This document shows positions 40,828-58,037 of a stretch of 64,000 bases of DNA, piece after piece (the first letter of the stretch is position 1; every line of letters begins with the position of its first letter). Under the pieces are notes generated by a model. The model worked only from the letters and a program-made list of their open reading frames with translations. It searched no databases and was not told the origin of the DNA. The translations under genes and the position numbers were made by a program. The DNA comes from Candidatus Anderseniibacteriota bacterium (GTDB taxonomy: Bacteria; Patescibacteriota; Andersenbacteria; UBA10190). The stretch is taken from the NCBI GenBank assembly GCA_016197005.1, contig JACPWO010000001.1, positions 218,544 to 282,543 on the forward strand. The letters are read 5' to 3'.

Positions 40828-41841
40828 TTACTGTAAATGCTCTGCCTTATTCCGGTTATGTTCGTCGTTCGTCTCGGCAAAAATGGTCTCACCCGACGGA
40901 GCAGATAAGTAGTAATAATATTCGGATGCTTCTGGTTTAATCGCGGCCGTCAGTGCACGCAGACCGGGATTGCTAATTGGGCCGGGCGGTAGACCACGGT
41001 ATTTTCGGGTGTTGTATGGCGAGTCTATCGCCAAATCTGCGACCGTAAGACCGGCTGTTGGCTTATTCAACGCATACCGAATGGTGGCATCAACGTACAG
41101 TCCTTCACCATCATCAAGTCGTTTCCATAAAATACCAGCCACGACCGCCATATCATCGTCAGTTTGCACTTCTCGTTCTAGAATACTGGCCATGTTGACC
41201 ATCTCATCCAGCGTTCGATCAGTTCCAGCCGCTAGGCCACTCTGAACAATCCGTCGATCAAAGTTTGTTAGCATACGACGAATAACATCGAGCGAAGTGT
41301 CATCTTCAAATACCCGATACGTATCTGGAAAAAGGTACCCTTCGAGTGTTCGTCCCTCTGGCAACTCACCTACAAAAGAAAATTCTTCAGCAAATTGAGC
41401 CGGACTGGAGACTGCCTGCATAAATTCCTCTTTCGTGCCAATACCACGTTCGGCCGTTCGCGCTGCTATTTGTTCGAGAGTAAAACCTTCGGGATACGTC
41501 AGGGTTAGTTCATTCTCCGTAGTATCTCCATTAATGAAGCGCGTAACGACTTCGCTGACTGGTTGTCCAATTGTTAAGTGATACGTTCCAGCCTGAATTT
41601 TATCCGCTGCTTCTTGCCGCCAGCTGTAGTACTTCCAAGGTAGCTCGCTACCAGTAAATCCTTCCGCCGCCAGTGCGCTCCACACGGCTCGGGAGGAAGT
41701 ACCGGATTCAATGGCAAAATCTCCGTCCTTTTCAAGGACAGCCCCCGCGATGAGCCAACGAAAACTAACAAGTAAGACGACGAATAGGACCAAACCGATG
41801 ATTCCGTAAAATTTGCGAGGACTTGTTACTTGAATAGCCAT
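40828..41841 (-). CDS. mltG: endolytic murein transglycosylase MltG (YceG family)
   Basis: N-terminal TM plus YceG domain; C-terminal YYYLSAPSGETIFAETNDEHNRN signature. Confidence 0.82.
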   Translation of the reverse strand: MAIQVTSPRKFYGIIGLVLFVVLLVSFRWLIAGAVLEKDGDFAIESGTSSRAVWSALAAEGFTGSELPWKYYSWRQEAADKIQAGTYHLTIGQPVSEVVTRFINGDTTENELTLTYPEGFTLEQIAARTAERGIGTKEEFMQAVSSPAQFAEEFSFVGELPEGRTLEGYLFPDTYRVFEDDTSLDVIRRMLTNFDRRIVQSGLAAGTDRTLDEMVNMASILEREVQTDDDMAVVAGILWKRLDDGEGLYVDATIRYALNKPTAGLTVADLAIDSPYNTRKYRGLPPGPISNPGLRALTAAIKPEASEYYYYLSAPSGETIFAETNDEHNRNKAEHLQ

Positions 41842-41850
41842 AGACAGCTT

Positions 41851-42918
41851 TTAAAGATATTCTTTTTTACCCTCCCTTTCAATCCTCTCCACTACTTCCT
41901 TTACTTTATGGGCAGCGTCAGTATCACAAACGAGTACTGCCTTATCCGTTACCACCACCACGGCGTTATCAATACCTATTAACGAGACGGCTTTGTCCGT
42001 TGTGTTGTAAATAAAATTATTTTCCGAATCCACATGAATATGATGGCCGGCTGGCATATGATCTCCCACTTTTCCAAAGATTTCTTTTACAGTTGCCCAA
42101 TTACCAACGTCACTCCAACCATAGTCACCCGTAACAGCAATAATGGTTTTTGTTTTTTCCACGAATGTTTTTTCCAGTGCCACCTTCGGTAAGTTTTCAT
42201 ACACTTGTCGCCACTTATCCGTATCTTTGCTGGTAATTGCTGACGCTAGCTCTTCGCTCGCCTCTTTCCATTCAGGGCTAAGCGTCGTTACCTGAGACAG
42301 TAAATAAGTCGGCTTCAGCGAAAAGTATCCTAAATTCCAGAAGTAACCTCCGGCGGCCACAAAGCCTTCAGCTGTTTCTTTATTTGGTTTCTCAATAAAT
42401 TTTTCGACATGATATACGTTTGGTTTTCCTGCGAGAGCCTCTCCCACTTTGAAATACCCAAGAGTGGTATTGGGATTAAGCGGAACGTGTCCCGCAATAA
42501 TGAGCGCCTCAGGATATTGCTCCAGTAAAGCTGGAACAGTTTGTAAGTCCTTGAGAAATACTTCTTCATTGGCAAATACATGATCCGACCACAAGAAGGT
42601 GGTCGGCATATCACCTTTTCCTGATGCAATCAGATTAAGACAGACGTTTAAGAAAGCGGCGGTCGTATCACGTTTAGCCGGTTCTAGTAAAAGATGATCG
42701 GTTGTAACACCAGGTAGTAACTGCTCTATCTGCTTGGCATATTTTTCCGATGTGGCCACAAAAATATTTTCCGGAGATGTAAGAGCTGTGGCTCGTTCAT
42801 AGGCATGAACCAACAAAGGCTTACCGGTACCTAAATCCACAAACTGCTTCGGATTGTCCCGAACTGATAGAGGCCACAACCGTGTCCCCCCACCCCCCGC
42901 CATAATGACGACGTTCAT
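41851..42918 (-). CDS. mannose-1-phosphate guanylyltransferase (GDP-mannose pyrophosphorylase)
   Basis: MNVVIMAGGGGTRLWPLS nucleotidyltransferase N-terminus; 355 aa. Confidence 0.8.
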   Translation of the reverse strand: MNVVIMAGGGGTRLWPLSVRDNPKQFVDLGTGKPLLVHAYERATALTSPENIFVATSEKYAKQIEQLLPGVTTDHLLLEPAKRDTTAAFLNVCLNLIASGKGDMPTTFLWSDHVFANEEVFLKDLQTVPALLEQYPEALIIAGHVPLNPNTTLGYFKVGEALAGKPNVYHVEKFIEKPNKETAEGFVAAGGYFWNLGYFSLKPTYLLSQVTTLSPEWKEASEELASAITSKDTDKWRQVYENLPKVALEKTFVEKTKTIIAVTGDYGWSDVGNWATVKEIFGKVGDHMPAGHHIHVDSENNFIYNTTDKAVSLIGIDNAVVVVTDKAVLVCDTDAAHKVKEVVERIEREGKKEYL

Positions 42919-42920
42919 GA

Positions 42921-44354
42921 TTGGAGTGTACCGAGCATGGTAAACTATTGTCCATGTCAGTCGCTGCTCGTGCCGTTCATGGAATCAACGTCTGCGTTAT
43001 TCCCTCCCCATATAACGATGATCGTCCGCTCGCTTTGCGGCATCGCTCACTCGCCACAGTCTCCGGGGCGCTTTTGGCAGTAAAGCTCTTGGCCGCCCTA
43101 GCGATAGCTTTTGCTCCCACTCCCGCTGAGCTTTCCGTCATCACCACTAACCGTATTATCCAACTTACTAACGCTGAACGACAAAAAGGTGGCTTATCTG
43201 CTCTTACTACGAATAGCCAACTAACAGCGGCCGCTCAAGAAAAATGCAAACACATGCTTGAGGAAGATTACTTCGCCCACATTTCCCCAAGTGGTGTTAC
43301 CCCGTGGTTTTGGATAAAAAAACATGGATATACCTACCAAGTGGCTGGGGAAAACTTAGCAATTGATTTTACTGAAGCTGAAGACGTGGTAGCTGCCTGG
43401 ATGGCCAGCCCCTCCCACAAAGCGAATATTATGCACAGCGAATATACCGAGACCGGGGTGGCAGTGGTGAGTGGTGAATTTCAAGGAGGCACCTCTATTG
43501 TTGTTGTACATATGTTTGGATTACCAGCTGGCGCAACAGCTCCGTCCTCTACACCCGTCCCTACATCTACACCAGCGACTGCCGGCACTCAACAAAAAAT
43601 ATCCACCCCCACTCCCTCGCCCACCACCACTCCACTTCCTACCACCCCGACAGCAGTACCCCCGAGCCCGTCCGCTGTTCCTCTCCGCACGCCCCGCATT
43701 GCGCTGGCCGGTACCGCGACGGCCGGAGCGACCGTGCTCGTTTCAATTGAAGGCGAAGGTAACAGTGCCATTACTGTTTTAGCGAACGGACAAGCCGCCG
43801 ACACTATTAACTTGCCGCCGACTGGCCAAGCCACAGCTGCAATAAATATCTCTTCTATTCCAGATGGAGCTGTAGTCCTTCGCGCCTATGCCTCAGGCTT
43901 TGGCAGACAAAGCGAACTATCTGAAGGAGTAGCTATAACGAAGGATACGACTGGGCCAGCGCTGGCCTTTGCAGATCTTTCCTTTGTGATTTCTCCGGCC
44001 TTTGATACCGCCCAAGCAGCGGTGAGCCTGCCAAGCGTAAATGGCTCACAAAGCATTCAACTCATCGATATTCGTTCTACAGAAACACTCGAAGCGCGCG
44101 ATGAGCATGGCAACGTTTCCGTTGTAGATACGACGTCGCTTAAGCCCAGCTTCGAAGAAACCGCTCAAAGTGCAGAGCTGCGAGCGCCCCAACGACTGCT
44201 CCAGGTGTCTCGTCACATGTCAGTAGTTGTCCTCATCGTCTTACTTGTCCTGCTATCGATGGCAATAATAATCCGCATTCACGTCCAACACCCTGCTCTT
44301 ATTATGCACGCGTCGCTGGCTATTCTTCTCTCAAGTGTTCTGTTTCTGATCTAA
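42921..44354 (+). CDS. CAP/SCP/PR-1 domain protein with Pro/Thr-rich linker and C-terminal TM anchors
   Basis: CAP domain (NAERQKGGL...HMLEEDYFAH...GENLA); PT-rich linker STPVPTSTPATAGTQQKISTPTPSPTTTPLPTTPT; C-terminal hydrophobic helices. True start possibly at MSVAARAV (42954). Confidence 0.7.
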   Translation: MECTEHGKLLSMSVAARAVHGINVCVIPSPYNDDRPLALRHRSLATVSGALLAVKLLAALAIAFAPTPAELSVITTNRIIQLTNAERQKGGLSALTTNSQLTAAAQEKCKHMLEEDYFAHISPSGVTPWFWIKKHGYTYQVAGENLAIDFTEAEDVVAAWMASPSHKANIMHSEYTETGVAVVSGEFQGGTSIVVVHMFGLPAGATAPSSTPVPTSTPATAGTQQKISTPTPSPTTTPLPTTPTAVPPSPSAVPLRTPRIALAGTATAGATVLVSIEGEGNSAITVLANGQAADTINLPPTGQATAAINISSIPDGAVVLRAYASGFGRQSELSEGVAITKDTTGPALAFADLSFVISPAFDTAQAAVSLPSVNGSQSIQLIDIRSTETLEARDEHGNVSVVDTTSLKPSFEETAQSAELRAPQRLLQVSRHMSVVVLIVLLVLLSMAIIIRIHVQHPALIMHASLAILLSSVLFLI

Positions 44355-44453
44355 TTTTACACCCAAAAGGATTATTGAGATTTTGCCGTTTTAGGTGGTA
44401 AAATCCACGTGTGATGTGGAATATTGGATTTCCAACCGAAGGAGGTGTTAACC

Positions 44454-44630
44454 ATGGCTGACGCACTTATCGTCGCAAGTAAAGTCCGTGCTCACCTCAA
44501 GACTCAAGGTGTGAAGATGTCTGGTGAACTTCCGGACGCACTCAACAAGAAAGTTATGGCCCTTCTTAATGATGCCGCTGCACGCTGCAAGGGTAACAAA
44601 CGTTCTACCGTAAAACCTCAGGACGTATAA
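44454..44630 (+). CDS. small hypothetical protein (58 aa) with strong ribosome-binding site
   Basis: GAAGGAGGTG 7 nt upstream of ATG 44454. Protein MADALIVASKVRAHLKTQGVKMSGELPDALNKKVMALLNDAAARCKGNKRSTVKPQDV. The ORF-track start at 44424 is less likely. Confidence 0.5.
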   Translation: MADALIVASKVRAHLKTQGVKMSGELPDALNKKVMALLNDAAARCKGNKRSTVKPQDV

Positions 44631-44719
44631 TGATAGGGCTAGAATAGCCCGAAAAGCCCCAGGATTGCGATTTCTTGGGGTTTTTCTTATAGTAGAAAAG
44701 CCGTAAAAACCAAATAAAA

Positions 44720-44748
44720 TTGACAAATAAGGCAAATAAGGTTAATAT
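44720..44748 (+). promoter_or_regulatory. near-consensus sigma70-type promoter for the sortase gene
   Basis: TTGACA (44720-44725), 17 nt, TAATAT (44743-44748). The ATG of the sortase gene is at 44763, so the transcript is leaderless or has a very short leader. Confidence 0.6.
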
Positions 44749-44762
44749 TACCCGTTATTTAT

Positions 44763-45449
44763 ATGAAGACCTTCCCTCTCTTTTTAGCCGTTTTTGGCTT
44801 TGCCTCCCTCTTTTTCTTTGGGCTGGGCGTTGTTGCGTTAATGGTCACCCCAGTGGTTGCCAGCTTAACGGTGGGCAAAGAGGCATACCAGCCTCTCCTG
44901 CCAGTTAGCGAGGCTCGCGAGGAAGGTTTCCTGGATGTTAAGGAAAACCCCGGAAAACAGATGTATCCTGCCCTCACGACGGAAGGACAAAGCTTGCCTC
45001 AAACAAACCGTATTGTCATTCCCGCGCTTGATGTCGATGTCCCAATCATTATGAGCCCTTCGTTGGAAGATGTTGATGTTATCGCCACTCTCAATGAAGG
45101 TGCGGCCTTGTATCCCAACGGTGTACTGCCAGGACACTTAGGTAACCTCTTCATCTCTGCTCACAGCACTGGCGAGCCATGGAAGGGTAAATATCGTTTT
45201 GCTTTCCTGCGGATTAATGAGCTACAGCCAGGAAACGTTTTGCATATTGATTACAATGGCACTCGCTACACCTACACCATGACTGATCAGGAGATTGTAA
45301 CTCCAACTCCCGATTACCGCGTGGTATCTGATCGTCCGGTGCCAACACTTTCGCTCATGGCCTGCTGGCCAATTTGGTCAACCCAAAAACGCATGCTTAT
45401 TCACGCTGACCTCACCAACGTCACCAAACTGACACAGCGTCCAGCTTAA
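44763..45449 (+). CDS. sortase-family transpeptidase
   Basis: N-terminal TM; catalytic His (LFISAHS), TLSLMACWP Cys motif and a downstream Arg; 228 aa. Confidence 0.8.
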   Translation: MKTFPLFLAVFGFASLFFFGLGVVALMVTPVVASLTVGKEAYQPLLPVSEAREEGFLDVKENPGKQMYPALTTEGQSLPQTNRIVIPALDVDVPIIMSPSLEDVDVIATLNEGAALYPNGVLPGHLGNLFISAHSTGEPWKGKYRFAFLRINELQPGNVLHIDYNGTRYTYTMTDQEIVTPTPDYRVVSDRPVPTLSLMACWPIWSTQKRMLIHADLTNVTKLTQRPA

Positions 45450-45458
45450 CTCTTTTTG

Positions 45459-46253
45459 TTAACAATTCTGCGCTTTGCGCCAACCGGCCTCCGTTGCCTC
45501 TTTTTCCGTACAAAAATATTTCTCTCCCTGCGCCGCATCTATTTCTGTCCGGCCGTAACTACCACAACCCGGAAGATGATAAATCTTCTGGCCACTACTA
45601 ATATTTCCTTTGATAGTGCAATCTCCGGACGGTAGCGGCAGCGGCGTACTGGTACCAGTTGCCCCACACTGCCCGCTCCAGATCCCCCATTTCATCTGCC
45701 GAGCAAACTCTTCAGCTGTATCTAATTGCACTTGATAGGCGACGTCCGGTGGATATTTAGAAGCCCGCGCAAATCCTTCGCGTACTAACACATCGTTTAT
45801 AAAAACATCATCAACGTAGATATACCGAAGTAATCGACCCAGGCGATCGGTTTCACTTACGTCCTTTTCTAAACGAACGCGCTTTCCCTCAACCAGTGTT
45901 TTATTTTTCTCTGAAGCTTCTTTTCCTAGACACTCAACTGGCGTCCCTACCTGAACTGACTCCGGTGTATCGATGCCGATATACCGCACGCGTCTGCCAC
46001 CTACTAATACGACGGTGTCACCATCAACTACACGCTCGACGACAGCAAATTCATCCTGAGCTCCAGCTACTTTTGTTGGAGCTGGAGTCGGAGTTGGAGT
46101 ACTTACAGGTGTTGCGAGTGGAGTGGGAAGAGATGTAGGAAGAGTTAGCGGTTGTAAAGAATTATCAGTTCGTAAAATAAAGTAGCCGGCAACTATTATA
46201 ACCAGCAGCCACAGACCTTTCTTTAAGAGCGTCGCTTTTTTCGAGACCGCCAT
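45459..46253 (-). CDS. secreted thermonuclease (SNase/micrococcal nuclease-like) with C-terminal Cys-containing KIYHxPGCxxY module
   Basis: Signal/TM; PT-rich linker; SNase core RVVDGDTVVL...RYIGIDTPE...GRLLRYIYVDD; C-terminal CTIKGNISSGQKIYHLPGCGSYGRT...C. Confidence 0.75.
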   Translation of the reverse strand: MAVSKKATLLKKGLWLLVIIVAGYFILRTDNSLQPLTLPTSLPTPLATPVSTPTPTPAPTKVAGAQDEFAVVERVVDGDTVVLVGGRRVRYIGIDTPESVQVGTPVECLGKEASEKNKTLVEGKRVRLEKDVSETDRLGRLLRYIYVDDVFINDVLVREGFARASKYPPDVAYQVQLDTAEEFARQMKWGIWSGQCGATGTSTPLPLPSGDCTIKGNISSGQKIYHLPGCGSYGRTEIDAAQGEKYFCTEKEATEAGWRKAQNC

Positions 46254-47527
46254 AATGAGTAACCAAAGGCGGCAGCGCCAACAATGATAAGTACCAAACC
46301 AATCTTAAGCCTACCTTCTGCTACGCGAGCGTCACTTGCCAGCTCATCTATTTGTTGCGGCGCAAGGTTATACCGTACTTCTCGAGCAAAATATTCCTTT
46401 TCTGGTGAAGCAATACGAACAGATACACGAGGAGTTCCGACAATGTCTCGCGGTAAGGGGAAGATGAATGTACCCTGGCGAATACTGTCGGCAAGTTTTA
46501 ACCCTTGTTCAGTGTGGCTGGCCAGAACTCCGTGATCGTCACCTAACGATACTACTACATCAGCATCAAATGTCGTCTCAGCATCGGCGGCTCCGACAAA
46601 ATCTACTGCCACGATAGCTTTATCATTTGCTTTACTTCCCATCCGATCTATTCGTGTCCATAACACATCAGCATCCGCTCCCCGCACTACCCAACGATAC
46701 GTTGCTAAACTAGAAACTTGTCGGCCACTACTTCCACGAAGCCACAGAACACCAAAATATACTTCTGGTTGATCGGCGGCAACAACTGGCATTTTAAAAC
46801 GTGTCGGCTGCCCGGCTCGAAGTGTTTGTGGCCTTCCTATTACCTGATTCAACCGACCGCGGGCTTGGTCAAATTCATAGATATCCAGCACGGGAGTAAC
46901 CGTTATCCCCTGCTCGGAAGTAGCCTCCGCTTGGATTTCAAATGAAGATCCAGCCGAAACATTTGGACCAGACAAAGGTTCAAGCACTGTATCTTGGTAC
47001 TCAGGAATATCGAATGGTCCTGGACCAAGCTCAATGACATCAGCGACAGCGGAGCCAGTGACGGTAATAGTTGCGTCATACCATCCCAAATCCCGTCCCC
47101 GCAGTGACGTCATCATTAGCCGCATCCGATAAGCGCCATTTGGTAGCCCAGGTAGTTTATACGTAACTGGCACTGCCTTTGTTTCCTGTGGGGCCAAGGT
47201 AATATTTTCAGGGAAGACTTGTACGTCGTATAAAATTACGCTGCTCTCCTGAATAGCTTCTTCTGTTCCCTCAGGCAGACTCATGAGCTCAACTCGGTAC
47301 CCTAAATCGGCAACCGTACTTTTTTCGCTATTAAATGCGTTAAAGACGCCAGTTACCGTTTGGGTTTTTGCATCAAAGGTCACTTCCGCTTTGGGGATAA
47401 AGACGCGGGGTGGATGGTAAGTGTTATTTAAGTCAATCTCTCCCCGATTGCCAAAAGGTGAAGTACTTTGAGCGTATGCGAGGCTAGGTAGCAATAATCC
47501 GATCGCGACTAGCGTAAAGAGTTTCAT
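46223..47527 (-). CDS. secreted hypothetical protein with C-terminal TM anchor and basic tail
   Basis: Signal peptide MKLFTLVAIGLLLPSLAYA; C-terminal LVLIIVGAAAFGYSLWRSRKKRRS. Confidence 0.55.
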   Translation of the reverse strand: MKLFTLVAIGLLLPSLAYAQSTSPFGNRGEIDLNNTYHPPRVFIPKAEVTFDAKTQTVTGVFNAFNSEKSTVADLGYRVELMSLPEGTEEAIQESSVILYDVQVFPENITLAPQETKAVPVTYKLPGLPNGAYRMRLMMTSLRGRDLGWYDATITVTGSAVADVIELGPGPFDIPEYQDTVLEPLSGPNVSAGSSFEIQAEATSEQGITVTPVLDIYEFDQARGRLNQVIGRPQTLRAGQPTRFKMPVVAADQPEVYFGVLWLRGSSGRQVSSLATYRWVVRGADADVLWTRIDRMGSKANDKAIVAVDFVGAADAETTFDADVVVSLGDDHGVLASHTEQGLKLADSIRQGTFIFPLPRDIVGTPRVSVRIASPEKEYFAREVRYNLAPQQIDELASDARVAEGRLKIGLVLIIVGAAAFGYSLWRSRKKRRS

Positions 47528-47560: not shown

Positions 47561-47587
47561 AACAACCCTGCTGTACGCAGGGTTGTT
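47561..47587. repeat. stable hairpin downstream of the first DUF11 gene; a related copy follows the second paralog
   Basis: AACAACCCTG-ctgtacg-CAGGGTTGTT. No clear T-tract on either strand, so it is not a canonical intrinsic terminator. Confidence 0.4.
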
Positions 47588-47609: not shown

Positions 47610-48992
47610 TTAGAAGAATCGGCGGGCTAAGAACGCTAGGCCGCTTGCTCCTCCAAAAAGGTTAAAGAGAGCGAAAGAAGCAGTTCCACCAGTGCGAGCG
47701 GTTACCGGCACCTGAACAATTTGATTTACAATGTGCCTTTCAATTATTGTCTCAGTCACGCCAGCCACTTCTGGCTCTCGTTCAACAATTGTGGTGTCTT
47801 CATCTTCATCACAAACGTCATGGTCATCAGAACACGCTTCGATAGTGTTGTGAAGATTAGCTCCATTAGGCGCACTGTCTTTTACCGTAGCGGTAATGTG
47901 GTAAGTCTTTGACTCATTTTCATCTAAGTGAATTCCCGTCCAACGAACAGTTTGTCCAGAGATAGAACCACCGCTGCTGACAGATGTAATTGTGAGGTAG
48001 GATGGGACATGATCTTCTATTTCGACGTCATGGAGGTCTACGTCTCCCGTATTCTCGACTTCAATTTCATACGTCAGGCTGTGCCCAGGACGCGTGATAT
48101 CTCGATTGTCCGTCTTAGTTACTCGAATGGCTGGATCGCCTGGTGCTGGGGTAGGTGTAGGAGTTGGCGTGGGTGTAGGGGTTGGCGTCGGAGTTGGTGT
48201 AGGCGTCACAGTTGGCGTTGGAGTCACAGTCGGAGTTGGTGTCACCGTGGGAGTAGGAGTTATGGTTGGCGTTGGTGTAATTGTTGGTGTAGGCGTAGCG
48301 GTTGGAGTAGGCGTCGGAGTTGGCGTGGGTGTAGGGGTTGGCGTTGGAGTAGGAATGCCAGCAAAATTGAGCCAAATGTTAACTGCTGTTGCTCGATTAG
48401 TGGCAAAGGCTTCGTCACTCAAACTAAATGAAGTGGTTGGAGTAAACTTGCGTAACCACTTCCCTACCACCTGCAGGGTTACTTTTGTTTCTCCTGCTTT
48501 GAGACTTGATAGGTTCAGGATGTGACTACCGGTTCGACTAGCGAAACAATACAGCGTGCCATTACAGAACTTCTCGCTATACACATCATCAGTGAGCATG
48601 ATCCAGTTGCTCTGAGCTGTGCCCTCGTAGTTACTGTGGTGCCCACCCATTTGGTCAAAACGACTCAGGACCCGAGCATTGAACACGATGTTATTACATA
48701 CTAAAAAGTCGACTCGGTAACTAAACGGAACGGCTGTTATGTCATATGTACCGGCCGCAGCATTGTGGATTGGAGAATTTACGAAAAGCTGAATAACAGG
48801 TTCATTACTGAGACGTTTTGGCAAATCATCATATCCTGTTGTAAGGCGTGGATTAATAACGGTAATACCATTTGAGCCAGCGCCAGCAGCTTTTTCTAAG
48901 TTGGCAGTAAATAACAATGCACCGAGCACCATCAGGGCACTAGCTAAGAGATACGGAAAGAAACGGAGGTTCTGTTTTACTAGGCTACTCAT
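47610..48992 (-). CDS. surface protein: N-terminal signal peptide, (TP)n linker, DUF11 (conserved repeat) domain, C-terminal sorting-signal-like tail
   Basis: Linker [42 protein letters not shown]... DUF11-like IRVTKT...[29 protein letters not shown]-terminus VPVTARTGG + hydrophobic [17 protein letters not shown] + RRFF. Confidence 0.75.
48115..48375. repeat. hexanucleotide-periodic tandem DNA repeat encoding the (TP)n linker
   Basis: GGTGTAGGAGTTGGCGTGGGTGTAGGGGTTGGCGTCGGAGTTGG... has ACNCCN periodicity on the coding strand. It generates spurious antisense GVGVGV ORFs. Confidence 0.8.
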
Positions 48993-49062
48993 AAATACGT
49001 CAGATAATTAAAGGTTAACAAATTAGAATACGAAGGAAATCCCCGAACTGTCAATCTCATTT

Positions 49063-49097
49063 ACAACAACAACCCGGCACTGTGCAGGGTTGTTGTT
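49063..49097. repeat. 12-bp-stem hairpin downstream of the second DUF11 gene, related to the 47561 hairpin
   Basis: CAACAACAACCC-ggcactgtgca-GGGTTGTTGTTG; shares the AACAACCC/GGGTTGTT core with the 47561 hairpin. Confidence 0.4.
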
Positions 49098-49118
49098 GAG
49101 TCTGATCATCTTCTGAAC

Positions 49119-50816
49119 TTAGAAGAACTTGCGGAGAACGAAGGCTAGACCGCCAGCGCCACCGAATAGGTTAAGGAGAGCGACCGAAGCCAGACCGCCC
49201 GTTTTGGCCGTAATTGGAACTGGAACGATACCATAACTTGTGCCAGCTACATCTTTGACTACTGTTTGCGTGATAATGTGCTGAACAGTTTTATGAGAAG
49301 TTCCAGCTACCTTGCCCGCGTTATCTACACTGGTCGAATCACTATCTTCATCACAGACATCGAAGTCATCTGAGCAAACTTCTACTCGGTTCGACAACAG
49401 GACTCCGTCAGGAACATTGCTTTTAACAGTGACGGTAATAGTGAATGTCTTGGTGTCGTTTTCTCCGATAGTAATACCGTCCCATGTAACTTTCTGACCA
49501 GCAATTGTGCCACCATCACTAGCTGACTTGATTGTTAAGTAGGATGGTACGTTGTCTTCAATGTGGATGTCGTGAATATCTACGTCACCCGTGTTCTCGA
49601 CTTCAATTTCATAGGTAAATGTATTGCCCGGTTTAACGAGATTCTGACTGGCTGTCTTCGTTACTCGAATATCTGCGTCATCAGGATCGGGAGTTGCCGT
49701 TGGGGTAGGCGTAGGAGTTGGCGTGGGTGTCACGGTGACCGTTGGAGTTGGAGTTACCGTAGCAGTCGGGGTTGGAGTCGGTGTCGGAGTTATAGTCGGC
49801 GTAGCAGTCGGAGTCACCGTAGGCGTCGCTGTGGGTGTAGCTGTCGGGGTAGATGTCGGTGTTGGAGTAACAGTTGCAGTGGGTGTTGGAGTTGCGGTTG
49901 GGGTTGGAGTAGCTGTAGGTGTCGCGGTCGGAGTAACTGTCGGGGTTGCTGTTGGTGTGACAGTAGGAGTCGCCGTTGGCGTAGCTGTTGGCGTAGCTGT
50001 AGGAGTAGCAGTTACAGTCGGCGTGGGAGTCGGGGTATCAGTAGGTGTTGGAGTCGGAGTAGCGGTAGGCGTAGGAGTTGGCGTGGGTGTAGGGGTACCA
50101 GTAGGAGTAACGGTCGGAGTCGTTGTTGGTGTAGTGGTTGGTGTTGCAGTCGGCGTGGCTGTAGGAGTTGGAGTGGCGGTTACCGTCGGAGTTGGGGTTG
50201 GAGTACCTAATACTGACGTGTCATAAAACAAAACATACTCGTCAATCCTTGGTCCAGCCGTCAATACAAAGCTGGCAACATTTGGAGCTGAATCGTAAAT
50301 TGTTACCTCATCTTTTAAAATACGACCGAGTTTCTCTCGTCCGTTATTTGGTCGCTCACTTCGTTCACGGCGAACACCATTTGAGCCACCGGTAAATGTA
50401 GAGCCATCAAGAATGATGAGACCGGCGGCACCAACTTTCCCGCGAGCAACATCACCATCAACTTTAATCTTGATCCAACCAGGGCCACGTTGCAGGGCTA
50501 AGCCGGTTGGATATACTGGTTCGGATTCAACAATAGGTTGGCCGCCAGTCGCGACTGGGAAGGTTTCGTTATCTTGGACAATTTGACCGCTCCCTAATTT
50601 TACAGTTGGCGTCATAACGCTCCGTCGAGTGGAGAGAACGGCACTAAAATCTACTCGAGCGTTAATGACTGGTGTCAAAGCTTCGGCAATATGTGTTTGG
50701 ACAGATACGAACGCAAGAATTCCGACAACAAGAAACGCCCCAGACAAACTGATAAATGGCGTTGAGATTCCAATCTTCTTTGCGAAAATTTTCTTTGACA
50801 GTATTTCCTTAAACAT
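49119..50816 (-). CDS. surface protein paralog: signal/TM, roughly 150-aa (TP)n-type linker, DUF11 domain, C-terminal sorting-signal-like tail
   Basis: Linker [36 protein letters not shown]...; DUF11-like [47 protein letters not shown]; C-terminus [11 protein letters not shown] + [20 protein letters not shown] + RKFF. Confidence 0.75.
49690..50215. repeat. roughly 520-bp hexanucleotide/dodecanucleotide tandem repeat encoding the (TP)n linker of the second paralog
   Basis: GTTGGGGTAGGCGTAGGAGTTGGCGTGGGTGTCACGGTGACCGTTGGAGTTGG... continuous GTNGGN-type periodicity. Confidence 0.8.
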
Positions 50817-51969: not shown

Positions 51970-52427
51970 GTGGTAACTATATATGATTTTAGGGGAGCGT
52001 CAGCAAAGTACTTTCCACCAAAAAAGTTCTTGATCATTTCGTCGTGGGTTGGAAAGATTGCAGCTGGCAATTTACTGGGTTCAAACCACCCCAACTCGTA
52101 ACATCGATCCGGTTCAAGATTTTCTGGCTCTCCTATAACTTCTTTTGCTAAAAATCCGAGCTGAATATAGTGACCACGGCTCCCGTTCGGAGTGTTAACC
52201 AGTGTTCGAAACTCCAGTTCGGTAGTAGGAGCTATTAGATTCGTTTCCTCCTTAAGTTCTCGAGCTGCTGCATCCGCTATATTTTCTCCTTTCTCTAAGT
52301 GGCCACCAGGGAGAGCCCAGGTACCATCGCCGAATATATTCTTCCTTTTCCCGAATAGAAGCTTGCCCTCACGCATTACGAACACGTTCACGCCAACATA
52401 CATTGTATCGTAGGTATCTGTAGTCAT
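51966..52427 (-). CDS. NUDIX hydrolase
   Basis: Nudix box GGHLEKGENIADAAARELKEETNL; 153 aa; 4-nt overlap with the downstream gene. Confidence 0.8.
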   Translation of the reverse strand: MTTDTYDTMYVGVNVFVMREGKLLFGKRKNIFGDGTWALPGGHLEKGENIADAAARELKEETNLIAPTTELEFRTLVNTPNGSRGHYIQLGFLAKEVIGEPENLEPDRCYELGWFEPSKLPAAIFPTHDEMIKNFFGGKYFADAPLKSYIVTT

Positions 52428-52465
52428 TTATTCTAGTTTATGCTTCCTTTTTTACTCGCTCAAGT

Positions 52466-52885
52466 TTACCTATTTCTTAGATAAAAGAAGTCACTGAATA
52501 TTTTGTCGAGATCTACAAGATCTGTATATTCACTTACCTGGAGACGCGGGTTACCCGCTATCATAGCAGAAAGATGTCGATCGTTTGCCGGTCGGAAAAT
52601 ACATATGATCTTTTTACCTAATGATTCAGCCATAGCAATTTCGTATCCGACGCCAAGACTGGGGCTTGTTACTTCAGCAACGACTGCATCAGACTGGGTT
52701 AGCCAGTTCACATCGCGAGCAAAAATATCCGTATCCTTCCGCGCTGTTTCTGTCTCTACAACTTTTACATTACCTACATGTTCAGTGAGAACAGTTCCGA
52801 ATTTTTCCAATTGTTTAATAATCTCAAAGTAAAGCGCTTGATCCTGCCTACCACCTCTAATTGATCCAGCAAAATATATTTTCAT
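52466..52885 (-). CDS. 2'-deoxynucleoside 5'-phosphate N-hydrolase (DNPH1/Rcl-like, nucleoside 2-deoxyribosyltransferase fold)
   Basis: MKIYFAGSIRGGRQDQALYFEIIKQLEKFGTVLTEHV matches the DNPH1 N-terminal signature YFCGSIRGGR.D...FGTVLTEHV nearly residue for residue. Confidence 0.8.
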   Translation of the reverse strand: MKIYFAGSIRGGRQDQALYFEIIKQLEKFGTVLTEHVGNVKVVETETARKDTDIFARDVNWLTQSDAVVAEVTSPSLGVGYEIAMAESLGKKIICIFRPANDRHLSAMIAGNPRLQVSEYTDLVDLDKIFSDFFYLRNR

Positions 52886-52914
52886 AAATACGGTATATTG
52901 TTTTTACTATATCT

Positions 52915-53520
52915 ATGAACCAAAAACTCGTCATTTTTGATTTCGATGGCGTCATTATCGACTCGTTCAAAACGGTGTTTGATATTACCCGCCTAGAAAG
53001 ACCTACTCTGACTGAACAAGCGTACAGAAAATTATTCGAAGGTAATATTAATGATGTAAAAAATCTCAGTCCTTCATCGCAAAAAATAGATTTCTTTGAT
53101 ATATACAGTAAAAAAGCAGCGTCCCTTTTACTAATTCCTGGGGTTGTCGAACAAATTAAAAAAATTTCTGACTACTACGATCTTACGATTGTATCTTCTA
53201 CTACGACTCCTATTATTGATAATTTCCTAAAACAACATGATCTTAGGGATTACTTTAAAGAAATACTGGGTAACGATGTTGCCTTCAGTAAAGTAACAAA
53301 GTTTAAAATGTTATTTAAACAGTACCAGATCTTAAATACTGATGCAGTCTACATCACAGATACTCTTGGCGACATTCGTGAAGCAACACAGGTAAACCTT
53401 CCCTGCATTGCCGTTACCTGGGGATTCCACGATGAAGACTTATTACGTAGTGGCAGCCCAGCTCGTTTAATAAATAATCCAAAAGAACTTGTACCAAAAG
53501 TTTTTGAAATTTTAGCGTAG
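52915..53520 (+). CDS. HAD-superfamily phosphatase (subfamily IA)
   Basis: LVIFDFDGVIIDS motif I; 201 aa. Confidence 0.75.
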   Translation: MNQKLVIFDFDGVIIDSFKTVFDITRLERPTLTEQAYRKLFEGNINDVKNLSPSSQKIDFFDIYSKKAASLLLIPGVVEQIKKISDYYDLTIVSSTTTPIIDNFLKQHDLRDYFKEILGNDVAFSKVTKFKMLFKQYQILNTDAVYITDTLGDIREATQVNLPCIAVTWGFHDEDLLRSGSPARLINNPKELVPKVFEILA

Positions 53521-53721
53521 CGTTGTTCTTTAGTAGTTACTATTAACGAATTTGACGTTTCTTCTTGCGTACATAAATATATTAAATATATGAATCCTCG
53601 CACAAACATTATTGAAATGCGTAAGCTTGCATACCTGAAACATTGGCTAACACCAGTGCCGGGTTTTTGTGCGTACGGAATATATAAACATTAGATTCTA
53701 GTTACTATTTTCCTTACTCAT

Positions 53722-53748
53722 AAACCCCCGGCAAATGCCGGGGGTTTT
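53722..53748 (+). terminator. rho-independent terminator
   Basis: CCCCCGGC-aaat-GCCGGGGG followed by TTTT. It lies about 200 nt downstream of the HAD gene and may terminate an sRNA. Confidence 0.75.
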
Positions 53749-53792
53749 AATTTCCCCACGTTAGTTCTTTGCAAACAAGAAAGGTGCGAATC

Positions 53793-54023
53793 ATGGCAAC
53801 GTCTAAAAACGACCAGGCAGTTGAACTTTTGATTGAGCAGCTAAAAAGTGATCGTCTCAAAAAGGCAGTCTTTGAGCGACTATTCCCTGGACACGGGGAA
53901 GCCGTTCTCGCCCTGCACGGACGGCACGACTTACTATCACAGATCAAGTACCAGGTAAGTCTTGGCCCACCCCAATCAATCTCACCCTGTAACTGCATTA
54001 ACTGCGGATTTGGAGACGTCTGA
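53793..54023 (+). CDS. small hypothetical protein (76 aa)
   Basis: AAGAAAGGTG RBS before ATG 53793 (MATSKNDQAV...). Overlaps the next small ORF by ATGA; terminator downstream. Confidence 0.35.
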   Translation: MATSKNDQAVELLIEQLKSDRLKKAVFERLFPGHGEAVLALHGRHDLLSQIKYQVSLGPPQSISPCNCINCGFGDV

Positions 54024-54241
54024 TGGAAACAAACCACGATCGCATTGAAAAATTGTATAACACTGTTCAATGGAATCCACGGTGGGGTCAGGAGCCAGTT
54101 TTTACCTGGAGGTCGCTACCTCCACGGTCAGCAAGTTCGAGAATGGATTCGACTGAATCCACCAGTGAGCAATCTGACCGAGGCGGGTTATCATACCCGG
54201 AACGCTTCTCTTCCCAGTCCTCAATTGATCTGATGCATTAG
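54023..54241 (+). CDS. small hypothetical protein (72 aa)
   Basis: ATGA-coupled to the preceding ORF; followed by a terminator at 54255. Confidence 0.3.
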   Translation: METNHDRIEKLYNTVQWNPRWGQEPVFTWRSLPPRSASSRMDSTESTSEQSDRGGLSYPERFSSQSSIDLMH

Positions 54242-54254
54242 CAGTCAGTCATGT

Positions 54255-54286
54255 ACGCACGCTTACACGAAGCGTGCGTTTTTCTT
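54255..54286 (+). terminator. rho-independent terminator
   Basis: ACGCACGCTT-acac-GAAGCGTGCGT followed by TTTTTCTTT. Confidence 0.7.
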
Positions 54287-54312
54287 TACAATTTGTGAGA
54301 ATGCGTAGTTGC

Positions 54313-54741
54313 TTATAACTTTAGTTCAAAAATGTTTGGTGGCTTCGCTTCTAAATCCGAATATCTAATCCAAGTTGGCTTCACTTTAAACCAGCGCTGA
54401 TCGGATCTCTCGGCAAACTTTTTTGAGCGAGGATTTTTCTTAATATGTAAATCTCGGTACCGCTCCATTTCTGAACCTTTAATTTCTATAGCTTCGCCTT
54501 CGTACTGTACTGTAAGAGGTTTTCCAGGATCGTTACCAAGCGTAATTGCAACATGGGGTCTATTGATCAAGTTGCGGTACTTTCGAGACTGATTAGAAGT
54601 ACCAAAAATAAGGTCCAAATTACCTGCCTCTGTTATGGCTACCAATGCAGATTCCGGCTTACTTTGCTCATTCACAGTCGCCACAACTCCTAAAATCTGC
54701 GTCGCGATAAATTTACTAATTAACCTCTTATTGTCTTCCAT
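54313..54741 (-). CDS. pyridoxamine 5'-phosphate oxidase-like FMN-binding split-barrel protein
   Basis: 142 aa; VATVNEQSKPESALVAITEAGNLDLIFGTS...PHVAITLG resembles the PNPOx-like / general stress protein 26 family. Confidence 0.55.
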   Translation of the reverse strand: MEDNKRLISKFIATQILGVVATVNEQSKPESALVAITEAGNLDLIFGTSNQSRKYRNLINRPHVAITLGNDPGKPLTVQYEGEAIEIKGSEMERYRDLHIKKNPRSKKFAERSDQRWFKVKPTWIRYSDLEAKPPNIFELKL

Positions 54742-54742
54742 T

Positions 54743-54769
54743 GCAGGGATACTTAGATCAGCTTAGAAC
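54743..54769 (+). repeat. copy 1 of a conserved 27-nt intergenic motif
   Basis: GCAGGGATACTTAGATCAGCTTAGAAC; 23/27 identical to copy 2. Contains the direct half-repeat TTAGAY-N5-TTAGAAC. Confidence 0.6.
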
Positions 54770-54889
54770 TTTATTATGCCTGATGGGTTATTAACTCCCA
54801 TACCTTGATGGTCTTTAAGTTTATGCTTCGTTTGTATAACTTTGTATATGAGGTAATGGTGCACACTTTGAACTAAGAAAGGAAACGAC

Positions 54890-55114
54890 ATGAGTACTCC
54901 TTATCAAGAACACCCCGACTCTAATGTGAGTCAGGCCCTAACTCGTCTCTGTGATGCGTTGTGCAGTTGGGAACGAGCAACTGGAAGAACTTCGGTACTT
55001 GTTCTTCGTGAGTCTGGGGGTTTTCACTTCCGAGCTGATAGTGGCAAACCTCTGAGCTCAGATAACGATGACATTCCTGACGAACAACTATTTCGGATGC
55101 TCAGTCAGGAATAA
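54890..55114 (+). CDS. small hypothetical protein (74 aa)
   Basis: AAGAAAGGAAACGAC-ATG RBS. Terminator immediately downstream. Confidence 0.4.
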   Translation: MSTPYQEHPDSNVSQALTRLCDALCSWERATGRTSVLVLRESGGFHFRADSGKPLSSDNDDIPDEQLFRMLSQE

Positions 55115-55142
55115 ATCAAGTACTTAATGCAGTCTTTTGTTG

Positions 55143-55176
55143 ACCGCAAGCACACCTGCATCTTGCGGTTTTTTCT
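55143..55176 (+). terminator. rho-independent terminator
   Basis: ACCGCAAG-cacacctgcat-CTTGCGGT followed by TTTTTTCTTT. Confidence 0.7.
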
Positions 55177-55193
55177 TTGCATTAATTTTCTTA

Positions 55194-55220
55194 GCAGGGA
55201 TATTTAGACCAAGTTAGAAC
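55194..55220 (+). repeat. copy 2 of the 27-nt intergenic motif
   Basis: GCAGGGATATTTAGACCAAGTTAGAAC. Confidence 0.6.
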
Positions 55221-55290
55221 CTATTCCTTACGGTGCCTGTTGGATAGATGTAGTGAAAAGACTTGAAAATGATCAACTATTATGGTATAG

Positions 55291-55542
55291 TTGTCTGTGA
55301 TCCACGCTACAAATCCCCAGGAAGATACCAACCTTATCGGAAATTCTACCGAGGTTTTTGTGACGTACTACAATAGAAATATTCCGGATGCCTTTCCTCA
55401 TGCTACTCGCAAGACGCTAAATGTGTTTAAGGCTCAATATCCATCGTTATTCAAGGAAAACGGAGAATGGATTATCGACAAGCACCGAAAAAAGTATATG
55501 GATTGGCTCGCTTCCTACCACGATTCACAAGTCACGCCCTAA
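55291..55542 (+). CDS. doubtful small ORF (TTG start in the ORF track). The region may instead be a transcribed non-coding unit.
   Basis: No ATG start. A good promoter-like element, TTGAAA (55263-55268) / 17 nt / TATAGT (55286-55291), ends at the proposed start codon, which argues against this start. Confidence 0.2.
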   Translation: MSVIHATNPQEDTNLIGNSTEVFVTYYNRNIPDAFPHATRKTLNVFKAQYPSLFKENGEWIIDKHRKKYMDWLASYHDSQVTP

Positions 55543-55569
55543 ATTCTCAGTACGTAGCTTGCCATAAGA

Positions 55570-55596
55570 GCAGAAGTATTTAGACCGAGCTAGACC
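55570..55596 (+). repeat. copy 3 (more diverged) of the 27-nt intergenic motif
   Basis: GCAGAAGTATTTAGACCGAGCTAGACC; 21/27 identical to copy 2. Confidence 0.5.
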
Positions 55597-56205
55597 CTAC
55601 TGAGACTTAATCCAGTTCTTAAATTCAACAAAGTTTTTATACAAAAATCCCCTGCCTCCTTTTTTCTCATATAGCTCAATTACATCAGATTGGTTATCAA
55701 TCATTAGTGATTTTGAAATATTCTTTTCTCCTAGCTTTTCTAAGGCAATATCAAACAATCTTCCGTTCTGTTCCTTTTTAAGAAAACCATAGTCAGCGGA
55801 ATTTACGACTGCATCAAATTTTTGACTAAGGTTGTTATTTTTGACCGTGATTTCGGAAAATACATCCATATTATCGGTAACTAACCCAACTTTAGTGCCT
55901 TGTTTCCTTAGAGTATTTATGAGAGCTAGTAATTGATCATCAAGCTTCATGAGTCTTACGCTTTCCTCAAATGCCTCCTTGAGAATCTCTACATCTATCC
56001 CTGTTCTACTCGCAATATCATCGTTTACTTGATCAGAGGTAACTTCTCCCCGCATCCATCTGCGGACGAGCTCACGGTTACCCTCAAAAACATTCTTTGC
56101 GATCCAGTCAGCAATTTCAGAGTGTTCTGGTTTGAGTGTTGTTGTATAAAAATAGTCAAAACAAAGTACGCCGTCAAAATCAAAAAGAATTGTTTTAAAA
56201 TTCAT
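55597..56205 (-). CDS. HAD-superfamily hydrolase
   Basis: ILFDFDGVLCFD motif I; 202 aa. Confidence 0.7.
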   Translation of the reverse strand: MNFKTILFDFDGVLCFDYFYTTTLKPEHSEIADWIAKNVFEGNRELVRRWMRGEVTSDQVNDDIASRTGIDVEILKEAFEESVRLMKLDDQLLALINTLRKQGTKVGLVTDNMDVFSEITVKNNNLSQKFDAVVNSADYGFLKKEQNGRLFDIALEKLGEKNISKSLMIDNQSDVIELYEKKGGRGFLYKNFVEFKNWIKSQ

Positions 56206-56235
56206 CAGCTCGGATATATAGACCAGTTAAAATTT

Positions 56236-56496
56236 TCAATCAAAAGATATTACTAGAAAGCCATGCTTTTCTACATCGGCCTTTGGCCAAAACTTTACAT
56301 CATTAGTTTTTAGAACATGAGTTACTACTTTCTCAATTTCTCTTCCGGTATAGCTCTTAGTTTTTGGATCCCATTCTTTAAGAAGAAGTAGGTCACCCGG
56401 ACTGCATTCCCAGTCAGCTAACCTTAACTCATATTTTTTCTCACCATCAAAAATTCTTTGGAAATACTCAGGCCAGACTTTTTTCTCTTTTTTCAT
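56236..56496 (-). CDS. ASCH/DUF3850-like small beta-barrel protein
   Basis: 86 aa; EYFQRIFDGEKKYELRLADWECSPGDLLLLKEW resembles ASCH-type PUA-like domains. Confidence 0.45.
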   Translation of the reverse strand: MKKEKKVWPEYFQRIFDGEKKYELRLADWECSPGDLLLLKEWDPKTKSYTGREIEKVVTHVLKTNDVKFWPKADVEKHGFLVISFD

Positions 56497-56752
56497 ATAT
56501 GAAGTATTGCACTAAAGTTACGCCCCACATGATTATGCCAATGGAAAATGAAGCCAACGGTAGCCATGCACGTGTCAAAGTGAAAAATCCGATTGATGAG
56601 GCGTAAAACGCAAGAGCGATGAGGATTGTCATCAAAGGTTGGCCGGATCGTTTTTCCTGGTAGTTCTTTTTGATTTGCGCTGGAATACCGACGAGTACAA
56701 GAGCCAGAGAAAAAATACTCACGAGTAAACTCAGTGTGAATTGAAGATCCAT
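56468..56752 (-). CDS. small hypothetical membrane protein
   Basis: 94 aa, three TM helices. Confidence 0.35.
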   Translation of the reverse strand: MDLQFTLSLLVSIFSLALVLVGIPAQIKKNYQEKRSGQPLMTILIALAFYASSIGFFTLTRAWLPLASFSIGIIMWGVTLVQYFIYEKREKSLA

Positions 56753-56777
56753 GCGGGTCTAGTTTGATCTTTGAACT

Positions 56778-57224
56778 TTAGCTACCGTGATATCCACGAA
56801 ATGCTCGAGCGATGGCCCTATATTGTCCCATATATTTAGCTTGTTTATGACCTTGCATCCAAACACTCCATTCGTCATCTTCGATTTGGGGATCAATCCC
56901 CGCTAAAGCAGTCCAATTACTCCATAAGTTTGCATAGTGAGATGCTTTCTCGGAGTGATCCTCAACGAACTGAACCAACGCTTCCTTTTCGTAACTATCA
57001 AAAAGCTCATCCATTGCACCGGCCGTTAACCTTGACTCATCACCCATTGCCTTGATGCGCTCCCGTATCTCCGAGTGTATTTGCATAACATCCGAGTCAT
57101 CTTCCCAATTTTCTTCTTCGATAATGCGGTTTGCCTCTGTTATCCAACCAGCTTCGTTTGGTTCCTCTGGTGAAAATGAGAATCTTGGAACTTTTTCAAA
57201 ACCCATGTCTTTATATTCATTCAA
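56778..57224 (-). CDS. acidic hypothetical protein
   Basis: 148 aa, Asp/Glu- and Trp-rich; no recognised motif. Confidence 0.4.
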   Translation of the reverse strand: MNEYKDMGFEKVPRFSFSPEEPNEAGWITEANRIIEEENWEDDSDVMQIHSEIRERIKAMGDESRLTAGAMDELFDSYEKEALVQFVEDHSEKASHYANLWSNWTALAGIDPQIEDDEWSVWMQGHKQAKYMGQYRAIARAFRGYHGS

Positions 57225-57287
57225 CTTTTTATTTCCAGCAAGTCCAGATGAGAAGAGCTGAGCTTAAACACATTCTGACTATTTCTT

Positions 57288-57363
<76 letters not shown>

Positions 57364-57374
57364 AATATTGTTTT

Positions 57375-58037
57375 TTAAGTTTCCTCTATTGTGAACTTTC
57401 TTGCAAGAAGCTTGTAAAAACTTTCTATTTCTTTGTATAAACGTACATCATAGTATCTAACGGAGATGCAACCCGGATAGCCTTCTTTCTTATTTTTACC
57501 AGAATTTTTCTTCCGATATACATAAAATTTTTCTGAAGGAATTTTGGTTAACTTTGACCAAAATTTAATTTGCTTTTCTTGATTATGATAAGAATGAAGA
57601 TGCAGCTGTGCACGAAATTTATTTTCTTTTATCACAAAGCAGGCACGTAGAAGAGATAAAAAGAGCGCAATCATTTCTGGGTCAGAATTCATAAATGCTA
57701 CTGATCCACGCCCCTTCTCTCCTTCCGACCAATACAGAGCAGAACATATTAGCTTTCCAAGGGGCATGCTTATTGTGAGGTTACTAAAGTCCCTTTCTGC
57801 TTTCTGGTGAATTACCTTGTCTCTATTCCACTTTTTTTCTAGTACCATTTTCCTTCCTCGCTGATTACCTATTTCTTTTCTTTTTTCAATTCTTCTTTTT
57901 GCTTTCTCTCCCAGGACTACATTCCCTAACCACACAGAGCAGGTGCTTTTAGAGATTCCAAGCATCTTGCTTATCTCTGGATATGTTCTTCCAAGCTTTC
58001 TTAAGGAAATTGCTTTTGCCTTTAATGCGGCTTTCAT
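57375..58037 (-). CDS. free-standing LAGLIDADG-family homing-endonuclease-like protein with N-terminal HTH
   Basis: N-terminal HTH (ISLRKLGRTYPEISKMLGISKSTCSVWL); single degenerate LAGLIDADG block ICSALYWSEGEKGRGSVAF followed by the typical amphipathic helices (EMIALFLSLLRACF). Lys-rich; 220 aa. Ends 11 nt from tRNA-Trp. Confidence 0.55.
   Translation of the reverse strand: MKAALKAKAISLRKLGRTYPEISKMLGISKSTCSVWLGNVVLGEKAKRRIEKRKEIGNQRGRKMVLEKKWNRDKVIHQKAERDFSNLTISMPLGKLICSALYWSEGEKGRGSVAFMNSDPEMIALFLSLLRACFVIKENKFRAQLHLHSYHNQEKQIKFWSKLTKIPSEKFYVYRKKNSGKNKKEGYPGCISVRYYDVRLYKEIESFYKLLARKFTIEET

Follow-up and report, generated by a model that had tools for sequence, protein, structure and literature searches.

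Two stalked surface proteins with a VPxTAxTG-type C-terminal tail near a sortase gene of Candidatus Anderseniibacteriota

Class E sortases and their LAXTG signal have been described in Streptomyces coelicolor (SrtE1 and SrtE2), Corynebacterium and Actinomyces, and it has been suggested that a tyrosine in the β3/β4 loop of SrtE1 (Tyr229) makes the enzyme prefer Ala at the P3 position of LAXTG (PMC5148588). The other closely comparable systems are the LPXTG signals and class A sortases (TIGR01167, PF00746), the class D sortases specific for LPxTATN (NF058671) and the fibrillar adhesins, which bear heads and sorting signals and whose stalks are built of CLIPPER domains (PMC12617251). CLIPPER is the new name of PF01345 (DUF11), a CnaA-like immunoglobulin (Ig) fold with an intramolecular Lys-Asn isopeptide bond (PMC12617251). 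Here a stretch of 64,000 nucleotides from a Candidatus Anderseniibacteriota bacterium of the candidate phyla radiation (CPR; contig JACPWO010000001.1, positions 218,544 to 282,543; below, the window, in whose coordinates all positions are given) was analysed, and two adjacent minus-strand genes for surface proteins, together with a nearby sortase gene, were compared with these systems. Both proteins end in a tail that opens with the consensus VP(V/I)TA(K/R/Q)TG. With a probability of about 70%, we read the locus as one in which a sortase anchors stalked surface proteins through a variant signal specific to the lineage (Andersenbacteria, CPR), and not as a new display system; this reading draws on the observed domain content of the proteins, on the conservation and modularity of the tail and on the linkage between motif genes and sortase genes. 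The initial annotation of the window had raised an undescribed signal class or display system, which goes too far: TA(K/R/Q)TG keeps the A-x-T-G core of LAXTG and VPxTA resembles LPXTA, so the motif is a near variant. The elements concerned are the following.

44763 to 45449, plus strand: membrane-anchored sortase, 228 amino acids (aa), with an N-terminal transmembrane (TM) helix at residues 3-36, H134, C201 (LMACWP), R210 and Y117 (Pfam PF04203)
47610 to 48992, minus strand: surface protein 1 (460 aa), with hydrophobic leader, head, Thr-Pro (TP) linker, CLIPPER/DUF11 domain and C-terminal tail (open reading frame (ORF), Pfam)
48147 to 48350, minus strand: TP linker of protein 1, residues 215-282, 68 aa, 91% T+P
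47802 to 48128, minus strand: CLIPPER (DUF11) domain of protein 1, residues 289-397, putative triad K293, D327, N382 (Pfam, alignment)
47688 to 47711, minus strand: motif VPVTARTG of protein 1, residues 428-435, proposed sortase recognition site
47613 to 47687, minus strand: 21 hydrophobic residues and basic end RRFF of protein 1 (25 residues past the motif)
49119 to 50816, minus strand: surface protein 2 (565 aa), with hydrophobic leader, head, TP linker, CLIPPER/DUF11 domain and C-terminal tail (ORF, Pfam)
49689 to 50204, minus strand: TP linker of protein 2, residues 205-376, 172 aa, 81% T+P
49338 to 49673, minus strand: CLIPPER (DUF11) domain of protein 2, residues 382-493, putative triad K387, D421, N476 (Pfam, alignment)
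49197 to 49220, minus strand: motif VPITAKTG of protein 2, residues 533-540
49122 to 49196, minus strand: 21 hydrophobic residues and basic end RKFF of protein 2 (25 residues past the motif)

The window sortase is, like the class E enzymes, a single membrane-anchored sortase of housekeeping type, and its tyrosine in the β3/β4 loop may correspond to theirs; it carries the NCBI label 'class E sortase', and class E (NF033747) is its best-scoring NCBIfam class model. It differs from them in that it reaches 50.5 bits with this model against a cut-off of 160 and matches the class E chains of the PDB at 18-22 bits, under class A, and in that its host is a CPR bacterium and not an actinobacterium. As in LAXTG, the P3 residue of the motif is Ala and not Pro, and the motif closes with x-T-G, but its P4 residue is Thr and not Leu, and an invariant V-P-(V/I) extends it upstream. 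With the LPXTG/class A system the window proteins share the tripartite tail at the extreme C-terminus, the closing T-G and a putative N-terminal leader, and with its cargo a Pro-rich spacer and an Ig-like stalk domain of putative isopeptide type, and the closest solved folds of the window sortase are those of class A; when the motifs are aligned on T-G, however, neither L nor P stands in its canonical place, the anchor hidden Markov models (HMMs) miss the window tails and the sortase is only about 20% identical to class A. In relation to class D, V-P-x-T-A reads as LPXTA-like and the class D model is the second-best class match, whereas the score is 39.5 bits against a cut-off of 140 and the additional invariant x-T-G has no counterpart there. 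A CnaA-like stalk domain with a putative Lys/Asp/Asn triad, placed between head and sorting signal, is common to the window proteins and the CLIPPER adhesins (PMC12617251; 9IFR), but the window proteins carry one CLIPPER each and not long tandem arrays, and their stalk length comes from (TP)n.

Architecture of the surface proteins and their tails

The architecture first proposed for both ORFs (hydrophobic leader, unrelated heads, Thr-Pro linker, DUF11 domain and tripartite tail) was found in each of them; the linkers had been sized at 65 and about 150 aa, and here their presence stands while the measured lengths are 68 and 172 aa. Both N-termini consist of a basic and then a hydrophobic stretch, read from the sequence as a putative leader, and for protein 2 AlphaFold2 (AF2) modelled residues 19-51 as a helix, in a prediction of the full-length protein that was made without an alignment and was poor overall (mean predicted local distance difference test (pLDDT) 44), with the CLIPPER domain alone partly folded. 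PF01345 matched protein 1 with E 4.7e-15 (56.3 bits) and protein 2 with E 5.2e-15 (56.2 bits; gathering score 24.6), DUF7507 matched both more weakly, and TIGR01451, named with DUF11 in the initial annotation as a check on the domain, was matched by protein 1 but not by protein 2. The Lys, Asp and Asn columns were invariant across an alignment of the two window proteins and three homologues (A2). On the CLIPPER structure 9IFR, in an alignment that was full-length but weak (E 0.13), the Lys and Asn fell on Lys715 and Asn806 and the Asp column lay at most one residue from the catalytic Asp748; the three residues are regarded as a putative isopeptide triad in both domains. GC skew was positive (+0.175) only across the TP-linker region (48001-50000), which fits ACN and CCN codons on the minus strand.

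Pfam and PDB sequence searches returned nothing credible for either head, and the head of protein 1 (about residues 37-214) gave neither a Pfam nor a PDB sequence match. The head of protein 2 was similar to ORFs at four other loci (L007, L009, L010 and L094; 38% identity, E 1e-25 to 1e-27). In the preferred reading, both genes encode stalked surface proteins that resemble fibrillar adhesins, with heads that may be adhesive. When protein 1 was compared with protein 2 by BLASTP, homology was limited to the C-terminal approximately 198 aa, comprising the end of the linker, the DUF11 domain and the tail (57% identity, E 3e-66), and the heads were unrelated; the two can be called tandem paralogs, as they had been, for the linker/CLIPPER/tail cassette but not for their N-terminal regions. 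Linker, CLIPPER domain and tail together appear to make up an anchoring cassette that is used again with different heads, and the arrangement X-(TP)n-CLIPPER-tail was also found in P0002, L027, L046 and L049. Neither surface protein was present in a collection of 15 billion sequences, by exact look-up or as a self match in a homology search; the flanking sortase and a flanking 434-aa protein are both in it. The two surface-protein genes were probably left uncalled or flagged as pseudogenes in the public annotation, perhaps on account of the TP repeats.

The hydrophobic segment is rich in Gly, Ala and Leu in both window tails, and the distance from motif to end is exactly 25 residues in both. 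Within the 64-kb window no third ORF with a tail of this kind was found. The tripartite layout of motif, hydrophobic run and basic end was repeated in 11 further tails, which makes 13 in all. V-P-x-T-A-x-T-G was invariant in five of five CLIPPER-plus-tail sequences, and the database homologues of the DUF11-plus-tail region (three of three) end with PVP(V/I)TA(K/R/Q)TG, after which come a hydrophobic segment and an Arg-rich terminus. Across the five sequences the flank just upstream of the motif was poorly conserved and the hydrophobic segment partly conserved. Within the membrane segment a signature L(L/F)G(G/S/A)xGL recurs (window proteins, P0001-P0003, L007, L026, L027 and L046), so that conservation reaches past the eight-residue motif. 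Literature searches gave no description of the motif or of sortase signals in CPR bacteria.

A profile of the tail alone (A1), which is too short for such a search, had no match among 5.8 billion proteins at E up to 10. The CLIPPER-plus-tail profile, searched against 1.84 billion representatives, added no VPxTAxTG tails; giant multi-repeat DUF11 proteins dominated its results, and the DUF11 proteins found there bear many kinds of C-terminal signal. Ten of the giant proteins (P0126, P0130, P0134, P0136, P0148, P0150, P0230, P0248, P0255 and P0262) have a common tail, ...QFI(L/V)WTSIIS.G..GG..G(K/R)R.F(F/L), for which simple signal checks gave no match; in P0126, P0130 and P0255 a stretch (L)RPT lies about 15-25 residues before it, and the terminus G(K/R)RFF of this tail is similar to those of the window proteins (RRFF and RKFF). 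Two more distant DUF11 proteins, P0193 and P0249, end in ...LVRTGA, a hydrophobic segment and a basic end, which may be another non-canonical sortase-type signal of the form x-R-T-G.

The sortase and its linkage to the motif

The sortase that had been noted near both genes lies 2.2 kb away and was confirmed by a match to the Pfam Sortase family (PF04203; E 3.9e-18, 65.8 bits, gathering score 26.6). An NCBI protein named 'class E sortase' matches it with 100% identity; this protein comes from a metagenome-assembled genome of Candidatus Andersenbacteria, a group placed in the Parcubacteria/Patescibacteria. An AF2 model made with 49 homologues (pLDDT 82.9) consists of an N-terminal TM helix and a sortase barrel. 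His134, Cys201 and Arg210 were invariant among the 49 homologues and so was Tyr117. This residue sits 17 positions ahead of His134, in the loop that connects strands 114-116 and 128-133, and is by position a plausible equivalent of SrtE1 Tyr229. Judged by the triad and the modelled fold, the sortase looks functional, and it is the proposed processing enzyme for both tails. In sequence comparison with the PDB the best matches were streptococcal class A sortases (30 bits). A Foldseek search with the AF2 model ranked class A first (E 6e-11); classes C, E and D came no more than about 1.5 orders of magnitude behind, and identity was about 20% throughout. Neither PDB sequence nor fold allows the sortase to be assigned to class E or to class A, since all classes are about 20% identical and score similarly.

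Thirteen loci around orthologous sortases (48-64% identity) from species-representative genomes were scanned solely for ORFs with a hydrophobic and basic C-terminus, that is, independently of the motif. At three of them (L007, L009 and L010) a protein of 372-376 aa is encoded directly beside the sortase and ends in ...(V/A)PVPVTAKTGPTE...SGSGLA(Y/F)AL(K/R)KYLK, a tail of the ...VPVTAKTG... type. These proteins have a head homologous to that of protein 2 (38% identity, E about 1e-27) and an Asp/Cys-rich middle in place of TP linker and CLIPPER domain. The tail is accordingly found on a different protein family as well; it is conserved and modular, and the sortase-type logic that had been ascribed to it is upheld. 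At another of the scanned loci (L008, 17641-18042), a 133-aa ORF lies 7 kb off the orthologous sortase; its C-terminus consists of ...SPTTQTG, a hydrophobic segment and then RRLRKGI, and the T-T-Q-T-G may be a degenerate variant of the signal.

Metagenome contigs were searched with a degenerate DNA pattern for PVP(V/I)TA(K/R/Q)TG. Among the 120 matches listed, five had a full tail, against 0.86 expected at random positions in the same loci, and the other 115 were noise, as the information content of the pattern predicts. Four of the five full-tail matches listed carry the (TP)n-CLIPPER cassette or the head of protein 2. On L049 a sortase of 248 aa (50% identical; LMACWP, ALYPNG) lies immediately upstream of the motif gene and on the same strand, and in the segment 34-2362 two paralogous genes in tandem, which encode Cys-rich surface proteins with TP linkers, come after this sortase on its strand, so that tandem substrates beside this sortase recur outside the window. 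Motif genes thus stand directly beside orthologous sortases in L007, L009, L010 and L049, and the co-occurrence of motif and sortase subfamily that had been put forward for checking was observed at these four loci.

Proposed processing and competing explanations

Export, the site of cleavage, attachment to peptidoglycan and an adhesive function of the heads are the proposed parts of the model. After export, the tail would retain the protein in the membrane, where the sortase would recognise the extended motif VP(V/I)TA(K/R/Q)TG. Cleavage would most likely fall between Thr and Gly (after ...R-T), in a register in which T-A-x-T-G corresponds to the L-A-x-T-G of class E. Transfer to a peptidoglycan precursor would then set the CLIPPER domain next to the wall and project the head on the TP stalk. 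The Thr-Gly bond is favoured because T-G is invariant, because the tails of P0193 and P0249 keep x-R-T-G without P-x-T-A, and because the enzyme leans towards class E and has the loop tyrosine.

Several results weigh against this reading. All NCBIfam class models fell under their cut-offs, class C (38.3 bits, cut-off 160) as well as classes E and D, and the nearest solved relatives by sequence and fold belong to class A and not to class E. NCBIfam and Pfam sorting-signal models, TIGR01167 and PF00746 included, gave no match to the isolated tails even at E up to 10; by model the motif is therefore, as had been claimed, not LPXTG, PEP-CTERM or PGF-CTERM. P4 is Thr in 13 of 13 tails, where the non-polar S4 pocket of SrtE1 takes Leu, which leaves a motif that is neither LPXTG nor LAXTG, and the basic ends are short (RRFF, RKFF). 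As for linkage, 15 of 19 other orthologous-sortase loci (L002-L014 and L135-L140) had no full VPxTAxTG tail in the retrieved sequence, which covered at most 10 kb on each side, and in the retrieved sequence of L001 and of L027 (6.8 kb) a motif gene was found but no sortase. Two cleavage registers can, moreover, be read in the motif as it stands, TAxT-G and VPxT-A.

The second of these registers leads to an explanation in which both proteins are still substrates of the sortase, but the recognised pentapeptide is V-P-x-T-A, an LPXTA-like signal of the kind used by class D enzymes or by class A enzymes of Streptococcus pyogenes, cleaved between Thr and Ala, with x-T-G as mere conserved context. 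Every tail does have a canonical P-x-T core followed by Ala, the LPxTATN-specific class D model is the second-best NCBIfam match of the enzyme (39.5 bits), and its closest solved folds are streptococcal class A sortases, among them Streptococcus pyogenes SrtA, which has been solved with LPATA and LPATS peptides. The terminal T-G is, however, as invariant as P-x-T-A, and it is x-R-T-G and not P-x-T-A that the distant DUF11 tails ending in ...LVRTGA... (P0193, P0249) keep; the best-scoring class model is that of class E, and an invariant tyrosine in the β3/β4 loop is what has been suggested to select Ala rather than Pro at P3 (PMC5148588). We regard cleavage at Thr-Ala as unlikely. Lower still is our estimate for a tail that is an uncleaved C-terminal TM anchor with a conserved juxtamembrane motif while the nearby sortase serves other proteins, an explanation that would account for tails unmatched by any sorting-signal model, for the six syntenic contigs of close relatives in which the sortase has no motif-bearing neighbour and for the 434-aa protein next door, which is anchored by a plain TM segment with RSRKKRRS and is free of the motif. 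Set against it are an invariant motif of eight residues at a fixed spot before a more weakly conserved segment and on unrelated ectodomains, as is typical of a processing site, the position of motif genes adjoining a sortase in four independent loci besides the window, and the T-G at the end of the motif, the canonical scissile pair of sortases.

That the tail serves another enzyme, an exosortase, archaeosortase or rhombosortase, is considered very improbable. The tripartite layout is common to the PEP-CTERM, PGF-CTERM and GlyGly-CTERM systems, and DUF11 proteins elsewhere bear many kinds of C-terminal signal, but no NCBIfam model of these or similar signals matched at E up to 10, none of the three enzyme families was present among the window neighbours scanned or in the Pfam annotations of the called genes in L001 and L135-L140, and the physical link is to a sortase. 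Sortase-mediated anchoring through a variant signal is retained as the preferred reading. A stronger form of it, in which the sortases of Andersenbacteria and related CPR bacteria constitute a class of their own outside A-F with a dedicated signal composed of VPxTAxTG and L(L/F)GxxGL, is put forward tentatively, and we would lean against it at present.

Gene neighbourhood, 3' flanks and implications

Further features of the locus lie between the sortase and the surface-protein genes or 3' of the latter.

45459 to 46253: secreted staphylococcal-type (SNase) nuclease with a C-terminal 'sunset' domain (NF051437) and a TP-rich stretch after the leader
46223 to 47527: hypothetical membrane-anchored protein of 434 aa with a leader and a plain C-terminal TM segment with RSRKKRRS tail, without the motif
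47561 to 47587, minus strand: stem-loop 3' of gene 1, 11-bp stem, -24.6 kcal/mol, z -5.2
49068 to 49094, minus strand: stem-loop 3' of gene 2, 12-bp stem, -25.0 kcal/mol, z -3.9

The gene for the 434-aa protein, which had no family match, overlaps the nuclease gene by 31 nt, and both lie between the sortase and the surface-protein genes. On six contigs of relatives (L135-L140), genes for YceG, an NTP-transferase (ManC-like), a membrane protein of about 480 aa with a CAP/YkwD domain, an ORF of 58-68 aa and the sortase follow each other in conserved order (40828-45449 in the window), and the variable region downstream of the sortase holds no motif-bearing gene. The CAP protein, encoded upstream in the window, is a constant neighbour of the sortase and has no VPxTAxTG tail. 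The sortase gene keeps a constant place, as a housekeeping gene, and the genes for the two surface proteins belong to the variable segment next to it; as the fixed order comes without adjacent substrates on the six contigs, proximity in the window is not an operon-type link. GC content was 0.39-0.41 at 52-58 kb (52001-58000) and 0.45-0.49 elsewhere.

The hairpins after the two genes are related, and the 3' flanks are homologous, as had been described: the stems have AACAACCC...GGGTTGTT in common (two copies in the window, none expected), and the 3' coding ends and flanks of both genes align at the DNA level. The stem-loop of gene 1 is likely a transcription terminator, although without a clear T run; a simple terminator scan called neither hairpin, since both lack a T run. 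From the homologous flanks and hairpins, the duplication took in the 3' flank, and this part of the proposed recent tandem duplication holds; a recent date was rejected, as the common cassette is 57% identical at the amino-acid level, a divergence that makes the duplication old.

CPR bacteria (Patescibacteria) are mostly uncultured, and for many of them a life attached to other cells is assumed; surface proteins, largely unannotated in these organisms, are the obvious candidates for attachment. The current models for LPXTG and other sorting signals miss the window tails; with the signal and the enzyme defined as a pair, a dedicated HMM could list the wall-anchored proteins of the lineage. The pair of sortase and motif may also be orthogonal to LPXTG and LAXTG and so of use for protein ligation. 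For the sortase family, the locus adds a data point on the drift of specificity, from Leu to Thr at P4 and from Pro to Ala at P3, and leaves the general picture of sortase action unchanged. Should the sortases of Andersenbacteria and related CPR bacteria prove to be a class of their own, a model of their signal would reveal a surface proteome, including candidate attachment proteins, that current annotation misses entirely.

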